Positions 4,198-4,351 of a stretch of 64,000 bases of DNA are shown here, piece by piece. How positions within the stretch are numbered: the stretch's first letter is position 1; every line of letters starts with the position of its first letter. Position numbers and translations under genes: made by a program. Source of the stretch: Candidatus Nomurabacteria bacterium (GTDB lineage: Bacteria > Patescibacteriota > Minisyncoccia > Phycocordibacterales > UBA918); contig CP060227.1 in the NCBI GenBank assembly GCA_023898525.1, positions 957,932-1,021,931 of the forward strand, in the 5' to 3' direction. The notes beneath the pieces are model-generated. The model did not search any database. It was not told the DNA's origin and saw only the letters and a program-made list of their open reading frames with translations.

Positions 4198-4268
4198 ATG
4201 TTTTTATTTTGTTTTCAAACTCTATCTAAGTGAGATAGATTGATTACTCGGAACTTAAACAATTCCCT

Positions 4269-4295
4269 GTAAAAGTGTCTCCCAGACACTTTTAC
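4269..4295. repeat. Hairpin H copy 1 (GTAAAAGTGTCT-CCC-AGACACTTTTAC)
   Basis: Perfect 12-bp stem with CCC loop, flanked by direct repeats caattcc (4258 and 4302). Copies with a covarying stem occur at 45958 and 46279. Confidence 0.6.
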
Positions 4296-4351
4296 CTACC
4301 AATTCCATTTGTATTAACTTTTGAATCTTTGAAAGTTAATAACGGGAATCG

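Follow-up and report, generated by a model that had tools for sequence, protein, structure and literature searches.

A 27-base palindromic hairpin repeat associated with tRNA genes and partial tRNA copies in Patescibacteria

Several families of small mobile or hairpin-forming elements are known with which the repeat described here can be compared. REP and REPIN elements, which belong with the RAYT (TnpA-REP Y1) transposases, are short (20–40 nt) dispersed intergenic palindromes of patchy distribution that form single-stranded DNA hairpins, often occur as inverted doublets and create no target duplication (PMC6006769, PMC3116915). A REP is defined by its guide, the tetranucleotide GT[AG]G that directly precedes the foot of the hairpin on the 5' side or, on the opposite side, C[TC]AC (PMC6006769). 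The IS200/IS605-derived elements called PATEs carry hairpins near their ends and insert 3' of a short fixed motif, without target duplication, by a strand-specific single-stranded DNA chemistry (PMC6006769). With regard to tRNA genes as hosts, mobile small introns are found in Thermoproteales, where one element may occupy various positions in different archaeal tRNA genes and a tRNA gene may be inserted more than once (PMC4090602, PMC4390854). Here we describe a hairpin, termed H, from a 64-kb stretch of the chromosome of a Candidatus Nomurabacteria bacterium (contig CP060227.1, positions 957,932 to 1,021,931 of the forward strand; hereafter the window), a bacterial segment with genes for ClpB, TopA, a short IF-2, SerRS, RelA/SpoT and AtpA. 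The family, found in Patescibacteria, is apparently undescribed. Our preferred reading, held tentatively and at slightly less than even confidence, is that H is a small palindromic repeat of DNA with a preference for tRNA-derived DNA, a miniature, selfish mobile hairpin of the REP/PATE kind.

H is a perfect palindrome of 27 bases, consisting of a 12-bp stem and a CCC loop, with a CT-CCC-AG centre and pyrimidine-rich flanks. An earlier note on this DNA had claimed three copies with such a stem and loop; all three are in place, the third with a 2-nt deletion in its 3' arm, and the window in fact carries four copies, not three. Copy 1 (4269–4295, forward strand; GTAAAAGTGTCT-CCC-AGACACTTTTAC) has a predicted RNA fold of -15.3 kcal/mol (z -4.6), scores 45.1 bits with a covariance model of the family, and lies 72 nt upstream of tRNA-Leu(taa), to which it is antisense. 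Copy 2 (45958–45984, forward strand; GTAAAACAGTCT-CCC-AGACTGTTTTAC; 46.6 bits) is situated within a pseudo-tRNA-Gln, and its exact 27-mer is the commonest H variant across genomes. Copy 3 (46279–46303, forward strand; 30.1 bits) is degenerate and corresponds to the copy 2 sequence minus 2 nt in the 3' arm. The previously missed copy 4 (18613–18639, reverse strand; CTTAGAATGTCT-CCC-AGACATTTTAAG; 33.8 bits), whose outer stem differs from those of the other copies, was detected via a core search with GTCTCCCAGAC; it touches the mature 5' end of tRNA-Trp (18542–18613) and has the same orientation as this gene. As judged by shuffles of the window, 0.00 chance occurrences of the full H pattern are expected, and the covariance model, built from 25 family members, matched the window at precisely these four copies, the next-best score being 21–22 bits. 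The best match of the model outside H (22 bits) is a perfect 15-bp hairpin, GCGATAAAATAATGT-CCAA-ACATTATTTTATCGC, at 15500–15535, near a module downstream of tRNA-Tyr that resembles module N (see below). Because copies 2 and 3, which share both variant and flanks, are local duplicates of one another, the window alone provides three independent copies.

The earlier note had considered that there might be just three copies, with the Gln pair arising from one duplication; apart from the fourth window copy, dozens were found elsewhere. A scan of reference genomes with a pattern fitting every intact window copy matched at least 120 loci, and among the matches listed about 100 were streptococcal multi-copy repeats and 13 were metagenome-assembled genomes of Patescibacteria (Paceibacterota, Nomurabacteria, Kaiserbacteria, Saccharibacteria and unclassified). 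A metagenome scan with the GTAAAA...TTTTAC form seen in the window yielded 19 further contigs with H, of unverified host taxonomy. These search patterns fixed the core of H, and it is the stem positions left free that carry the covariation measure. Across 25 distinct H sequences the stem was paired in 97% of 300 cells, changes on both sides were seen at 10 of the 12 stem pairs, and just 2 changes were one-sided. None of 500 shuffles attained the observed covariation values, and pairing fell to 25–45% if the 3' partner was slid by 1–3 columns. The covarying stem that the earlier note had read from the exchange of GT/AC for CA/TG is a true double compensatory change, and the family-wide data make the covariation robust.

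The geometry of the hairpin is equally constant. In nearly all copies the stem is exactly 12 bp long, it is perfect and without bulges, and the CT-CCC-AG centre is invariant. Basal pairs 2–6 are almost all A-T, and the outer stem has a consensus of its own (T-N-A-A-A-N-N) that does not mirror the local target sequence. A C directly follows the stem in 32 of 40 distinct copies, the general 3' flank being merely C-Y. Several of the fetched loci also hold second or third hairpins of the H design, beyond the match for which the locus had been chosen, some with other closing pairs (ATCT-CCC-AGAT, AGCT-CCC-AGCT and CTCT-CCC-AGAG). Close inverted doublets, in which CCC is followed by GGG within 60 nt, are present at five loci (L049, L130, L133, L137 and L141), and close direct pairs at two (L134 and L142). 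One identical 27-mer, GTAAAACAGTCTCCCAGACTGTTTTAC, adjoins Gln, Ala, Thr and Leu sequences as well as plain intergenic DNA on unrelated contigs with GC contents of 40–52%.

G·U pairs were found in 2 of the 300 stem cells, nearly every stem change being a double Watson-Crick swap, and H has no constant orientation towards the neighbouring tRNA, being sense in about half of the cases and antisense in the others. Taken together, the scarcity of G·U and the lack of a fixed orientation fit a DNA-level palindrome or a structure used on both strands better than a one-strand RNA element. H might nevertheless be a cis-acting RNA hairpin in tRNA precursors and at some mRNA ends, serving as a processing, stability or insulator signal or as a weak bidirectional terminator read by a conserved Patescibacteria protein or RNase, with the H-bearing tRNA-like units co-transcribed with the intact tRNA. 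The strong covariation, the invariant loop and the fixed 12-bp length would all suit such a role, and H lies 14–55 nt from tRNA ends in many loci. Copy 4 must even be transcribed as a leader, because it abuts the mature 5' end of tRNA-Trp. The position of H is moreover conserved in pseudo-Gln, Ala, Thr and Leu units across genomes; a hairpin of unrelated sequence, H' (see below), occupies the H slot as if any hairpin sufficed; and the layout of A-tract, stem and T-tract resembles the bidirectional terminators of this lineage, for which function on both strands would explain the absent G·U pairs. On the other hand, with an orientation that is about half sense and half antisense, the CCC loop of one transcript is GGG in the other. 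An intrinsic terminator scan does not flag H, which has 3–4 U and an AT-rich stem, a terminator placed right before tRNA-Trp without room for a promoter would silence an essential gene, and in one locus (L131) H is found between divergent genes, where no terminator is needed. Furthermore, close relatives with the same tRNA cluster manage without H, and in Rfam scans the gathering score was reached by tRNA and rRNA alone, no family matching H. We regard a role in RNA as unlikely, though of appreciable probability. Sensitive Rfam scans of the H regions gave chance-level matches, and no hidden structured RNA was detected around the inverted pair of L133 or the window sites. A promoter role was also considered and seems unlikely: the arms contain -10-like hexamers (TAGAAT, TAAAAT) but no -35, and half of the copies are downstream of tRNAs.

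The tie between this structured family and tRNA genes, which the earlier note had proposed, is borne out by the distances. In loci with at least one tRNA, an intact tRNA is found no more than 150 nt away from 56% of the H copies, compared to 7.5% of random positions, and the median distance to a tRNA is 125 nt for H and 1618 nt for random positions. All four window copies are within 170 nt of a tRNA, yet zones extending 160 nt from a tRNA make up only about 5% of the window. The association is real but not restricted to tRNA genes, as H also occurs between ordinary housekeeping genes (beside murD-like, lepA/divIC and glycosyltransferase genes).

Near tRNA genes, H is usually nested in a partial copy of the neighbouring tRNA, at a structural position that is constant for each tRNA type across genomes. 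In Gln copies a sense H follows the D-arm and takes the place of most of the anticodon loop together with the 5' strand of its stem (twice in the window, in L128/129/132 and twice in L134). In Ala copies H separates the 5' strand of the acceptor from the D-loop (L040, L137/144). In Thr copies an antisense H directly follows the D-arm and is accompanied by a second insertion of 61–72 nt (L081, L140), and in Leu copies an antisense H again directly follows the D-arm of the decayed copy (window position 4269, L145). The earlier note had let the hairpin replace the anticodon arm of the Gln-like sequences; what H and a few flanking bases displace is the part just named, 10 nt giving way to 32 nt, and L128 and L134 show a like arrangement. 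The same note had taken a caattcc repeat on both sides of copy 1 for a tRNA-Leu T-loop fragment. This holds for the left flank (4259–4266, forward strand; CAATTCCC), which matches the sense T-loop of tRNA-Leu(taa) in 8 of 8 positions and is preceded by CTTAAACAATT, a sequence identical to the 5' arm of H'. The right flank (4296–4307, forward strand; CTACCAATTCCA) is better explained as a 12-nt antisense fragment of the tRNA-Leu D-arm with one mismatch. The two copies of the 7-nt repeat accordingly stem from unlike parts of the tRNA, the T-loop (an 8-mer, sense) and the D-arm (a 12-mer, antisense), and the repeat is no target-site duplication.

The Gln array offers the most complete view of such an arrangement in the window. 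Pseudo-tRNA-Gln copy A (45931–46003, forward strand) has the acceptor 5' strand and D-arm, H for the anticodon stem 5' strand and loop, and a decayed 3' part. A 5' fragment of tRNA-Gln (46056–46075, forward strand; 20/20 identical to the intact gene) is separated by a 196-nt segment with the intact tRNA-Gln(ctg) (46141–46212, forward strand) from a pseudo-tRNA-Gln 3' part that carries copy 3 (46270–46343, forward strand), the last 37 nt of which are identical to positions 36–72 of the intact gene. The intact tRNA-Gln is enclosed by a perfect 19-bp inverted repeat of leader and trailer (46105–46123, 46226–46244) and by an outer one (46043–46055, 46254–46269); the unit so enclosed (46043–46269) resembles an rRNA-style processing stem and interrupts the D-loop of the H-bearing tRNA-Gln copy. 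Directly after the array lies a RhuM-Fic/DOC gene (46430–47410), and the presence of a similar RhuM-Fic gene elsewhere in a relative (L123), beside clpB, suggests that this gene moves around.

H appears not to be a working part of any tRNA. An amber suppressor, suggested by the CTA that follows H where the intact Gln gene has the anticodon CTG, was rejected, for no anticodon stem forms once H is removed; the CTA belongs to the flank of H, since it follows H in Leu and other contexts too. A tRNA intron of the archaeal bulge-helix-bulge type or of group I was likewise rejected: the 12-bp helix is uninterrupted and has no bulge-helix-bulge, excision restores no stem, no Rfam intron matches, and an intact paralogue is always adjacent.

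Partial tRNA copies are widespread in the window. Six of its eight tRNAs have direct or inverted copies of their own 3'-terminal ~20 nt (T-loop to 3' end) nearby, and the Gln fragment copy spans the region from the anticodon loop to the 3' end. The tRNA-Leu(tag) fragments that were checked lack CCA, and one includes the downstream flank of the gene itself; the partial copies therefore derive from DNA, not from mature tRNA.

Among these fragments H forms one module of a mosaic (H, H', M and N) fused to partial tRNA copies. In module M a short hairpin that includes CTTACAG precedes a long one. Its first copy (1986–2052, forward strand), composed of hp1 and the long hairpin AGGTTGTCGATATTTT...AAAATATCTGACTAACCT, comes after the TTGA of an antisense tRNA-Leu(tag) T-loop fragment. 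The second (3986–4052, forward strand), 81% identical to the first with compensatory stem differences, comes after an antisense tRNA-Leu(taa) 3' fragment (3964–3985), and the intact tRNA-Leu(taa) (4111–4197, reverse strand) stands between it and H copy 1. Module N is found at 3778–3904 (forward strand), fused to a tRNA-Leu(taa) 3' fragment (3768–3782), and at 4343–4469 (forward strand; 96% identical), fused to an inverted tRNA-Cys 3' fragment (4461–4481), with an N-like copy near tRNA-Tyr at about 15600–15706. H' (2054–2081, forward strand; CTTAAACAATT-ATTAA-GAATTGTTTAAG; 21 bits) is a hairpin unrelated to H that sits in the H slot after M and has the same flanks as H, AACCTTC and GCCCC. The order M, AACCTYC, H, GCCCC, forming the composite hp1-M-H, is kept in at least eight loci from different genomes. 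M itself stands immediately before H in at least six Patescibacteria loci other than the window. In the loci with an alignable flank, the composite is bordered on its left by T(T/C)GA from an antisense T-loop (L103, L049, L142 and both window copies), or by TTAGA in L067. No fixed 5' motif was found for solitary H, and H is usually alone, without M.

Modules M and N, which are joined to fragments of tRNA-Leu, Cys and Tyr running from the T-loop to the 3' end, each have a GATATTTWA...TWAAATATC hairpin. The arms of the M hairpin (4008–4037) coincide with sigma-70-like -35/-10 hexamers, TCGATA-18-TAAAAT, and an M-like half-site at 3393–3413 (3375–3404) gives a 10/12 promoter-like match, TCGATA-18-TATAAT with TG, before the ImmA-like gene described below. 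On the basis of these sequence matches, module M may be a portable promoter. M-like sequences were also considered as terminal inverted repeats of the ImmA insertion and rejected, the resemblance being confined to the one half-site at 3393–3413.

Four relatives (IF-2 identity about 82%), obtained without regard to H and amounting to about 62 kb of unique sequence, were compared with the window. They keep the synteny of nifS-infB-rbfA followed by tRNA-Cys, Leu(taa), Lys and Leu(tag). In L121 and L123 the tRNA cluster, from which H, M and N are absent, is compact: its spacers measure ~110 nt, as against 320–1200 nt in the window. The H model found nothing above the level of generic hairpins in the approximately 62 kb from the relatives, whereas the window has four copies. 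The modules have therefore been gained within the lineage, and the distribution of the family among close lineages is patchy. Long perfect palindromes that reach from a terminator into a tRNA 3' end are present in the relatives all the same, and in L123 an inverted tRNA-Cys fragment encloses a small hairpin with a CCAG loop; such tRNA-fragment palindromes therefore predate the arrival of H. The latter hairpin, ACATCATGC-CCAG-GCATGATGT (L123 9004–9025; L126 9005–9026), interrupts the inverted tRNA-Cys 3' fragment in relatives free of H and is a different mini-hairpin at an analogous position. Downstream of the cluster tRNAs examined, namely Cys, Lys and, in less perfect form, Leu(taa), there is a long perfect palindrome that looks like a bidirectional terminator (window 4461–4539, L123 8949–9002 and 9340–9399, L125 10579–10637). 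Its stem, with arms of 25–39 bp, enters the last 8–21 nt of the tRNA, so that the trailer can pair with the 3' strand of the acceptor and T-arm.

Template switching is one process that might generate such structures without any mobile element. H would then be a by-product of replication or repair errors that create palindromes (fold-back priming, template switching at hairpins) and are frequent in these reduced genomes, the same process making the long palindromes and the inverted tRNA-fragment duplications. The genomes are indeed rich in perfect 20–30-bp palindromes, some of which reach tRNA 3' ends, inverted partial tRNA duplications surround terminators (Cys, Tyr, Trp and, in L104, Ser), and copying one arm from the other gives perfect Watson-Crick pairing without selection on each pair. 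Independent local errors would, however, not yield a shared CT-CCC-AG centre, a 12-bp length or the same 27-mer at unrelated loci of differing GC, nor an outer stem with a consensus that is not that of the local target. We therefore consider this origin quite improbable.

The tRNA cluster also attracts other insertions. A two-gene insertion at 2488–3362, comprising an ImmA/IrrE-type metallopeptidase gene and a small open reading frame, lies between tRNA-Lys and tRNA-Leu(tag) and is absent in L121 and L123; since L125 and L126 hold other genes inserted in the same cluster, this cluster is an insertion hotspot. Such a hotspot, together with the RhuM-Fic gene after the Gln array, could point to integrative elements that use tRNA genes as attachment (att) sites. 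H, M and N would then be leftover att-adjacent arms, and the partial tRNA copies att repeats that persisted after deletion of the element body. The partial copies begin in either the T-loop or the anticodon loop and extend to the 3' end, and these two starts are, reportedly according to Williams in 2002, the classic crossover sublocations of tyrosine integrases. Against this, no integrase was found in any fetched locus, the segments between the repeats are just 95–200 nt long, and the fragments are inverted as well as direct. The same modules lie beside different tRNAs, with each fragment identical to the local tRNA including its local downstream flank, so that many separately adapted elements would be needed. 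H is found at D-arm junctions and in intergenic DNA away from tRNAs, which are not crossover sites of integrases, and a complete palindrome on one side of a junction is unlike an attL or attR core. An origin as attachment-site scars thus seems improbable. Pfam searches for an integrase or genomic island beside tRNA-Gln gave RhuM-Fic, a hydrolase, a transporter and others, with no recombinase among them.

We further examined whether H shows the footprint of a transposable element. For 32 H copies the longest k-mer shared by the two flanks had a mean length of 1.06, compared to 1.42 in shuffled pairings, and flanks sharing at least 5 nt were seen in 4 of the 32 copies against 2.6 expected, which is not above the control. 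Since there is no target-site duplication, H is not a classical miniature inverted-repeat transposable element. Regarding a recurring enzyme gene near the H copies away from tRNAs, the neighbours were the housekeeping genes for DivIC, LepA, glycosyltransferases and MurD. A phage origin was not supported either, as a viral scan gave four matches, two in a streptococcal insertion sequence-like context and two of unknown host. A literature search with the H core sequence returned unrelated primers only, and the accessible literature makes no mention of the H motif or of such a tRNA-linked arrangement in Patescibacteria.

The reading of H as a DNA-level repeat is based on the Watson-Crick swaps, the 27-mer shared by unrelated loci, the mixed orientation, the patchiness and the nesting with other hairpin modules. 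H resembles REP and IS200/IS605-like elements in being a hairpin without target duplication, and the hp1-M-H composite resembles them in the fixed motif to its left. On this reading, the spread of H in Patescibacteria would take place at the level of DNA; its most plausible form would be a hairpin of single-stranded DNA, on which a hairpin-recognising enzyme would act in trans, as is the case for REP or IS200/IS605-derived (PATE) elements. It would land preferentially in DNA derived from tRNA genes, namely at the D-arm base, the anticodon arm or the T-arm of redundant or decaying copies, and further in tRNA leaders and trailers and sometimes in ordinary intergenic DNA. With its sister modules M, N and H' it would build mosaics of tRNA scraps beside the intact gene. 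An insertion into a sole functional tRNA would presumably be lethal, and survivors would consequently be found in duplicated or broken tRNAs or just outside the mature tRNA. The covarying stem would result from a requirement that the hairpin be perfect, either in single-stranded DNA or on both strands.

It should be stressed that several observations weigh against this proposal. The conservation of the H core across genomes is partly imposed by the search, because the patterns fixed the core. Few G·U pairs are no distinguishing mark of H, given that all long hairpins in these genomes are perfectly Watson-Crick. The invariant CCC loop and the exact 12-bp stem are equally expected of a protein-binding RNA hairpin, and the constant structural position of H in pseudo-copies of a given tRNA type across genomes, where it displaces 5–10 nt, could mean an inherited and conserved functional unit. 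In none of the fetched loci, which cover up to 15 kb around each match, did we see a transposase, an HUH/Y1 nuclease, TnpB or an integrase, and no H insertion polymorphism between near-identical strains was captured, mobility thus being something we infer.

A bolder version, to which we assign a rather small probability, is that H, M, N and H' are non-autonomous parts of a new mobile system of Patescibacteria that recognises tRNA-gene DNA (for instance as single-stranded cloverleaf hairpins) and inserts at the bases of tRNA arms and in T-loops, thereby making the partial tRNA duplications; or else that the H-bearing tRNA-like units are conserved functional RNAs acting as decoys or regulators. 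Such a tRNA-gene-recognising system would be a bacterial counterpart of the eukaryotic elements that target tRNA genes, and an enzyme partner, if found, would show that hairpin-handling transposases can be specific for tRNA-gene DNA, a target new to them. If H acts in RNA, it would represent a lineage-specific step in the handling of tRNA transcripts. The genomes of Patescibacteria (the candidate phyla radiation, CPR) are tiny and gene-dense, and little is known of their mobile DNA and non-coding elements. The H family would account for the tRNA scraps that enlarge the neighbourhoods of tRNA genes there and can mislead the annotation of tRNAs and the binning of genomes, and would supply a marker of recent genome change in uncultured lineages.

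Compared with the known systems, the mobile introns of archaeal tRNA genes are similar by analogy only, in that a pseudo-tRNA-Thr carries two insertions in L081 and L140. H differs from them in having no bulge-helix-bulge, in that its removal restores no functional anticodon stem and in the intact paralogue that is always adjacent; its host is bacterial, and it occurs on either strand and outside tRNA sequences. The Streptococcus BOX-like repeats (several families, among loci L001–L120 and at L147 and L149) have an identical GTCT-CCC-AGAC core of 11 nt and A/T-rich covarying stems of 11–12 bp, and some share flanks with H ('caacc' upstream, 'gc' downstream). Unlike H, they sit in different larger elements and were not seen beside tRNAs in the loci examined. 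Since the search pattern fixed the core, its resemblance between Streptococcus and Patescibacteria may be convergence. One streptococcal family of H-core repeats lies within ISL3-transposase-like sequence. The SDR repeats of Nostoc were reportedly described by Elhai et al. in Genome Research in 2008 as 21–27-nt, hairpin-forming sequences that are nested in each other and in other repeats and apparently mobile, with no known enzyme. They belong to the same size class as H (27 nt) and are likewise hairpin-forming and nested, but they come from another phylum and have another sequence. SDR repeats are not known to prefer tRNA genes.

With respect to REP and REPIN elements, H mostly lacks the GT[AG]G guide, the 3' flank being CTAC in 4 of 40 distinct copies and CTAG in another 4 of 40. 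REPs have a GC-rich basal stem and an imperfect palindrome, whereas the basal stem of H is AT-rich and its palindrome perfect and without bulges. The copy number of H is apparently modest and concentrated at tRNA genes, and no RAYT gene was seen in the fetched loci. In common with REPs and REPINs, H is a short palindrome that is patchy in its distribution and has no target duplication; its close inverted pairs may correspond to REPIN doublets. As to PATEs, H differs from them in that no TnpA or TnpB partner was found in the fetched loci, in that it mostly occurs alone without M, and in its target, which here is a tRNA T-loop sequence. A possible likeness to PATEs is that the hp1-M-H composite abuts a short motif, T(T/C)GA, in the loci where its flank can be aligned, and that H shows no duplication of the target.

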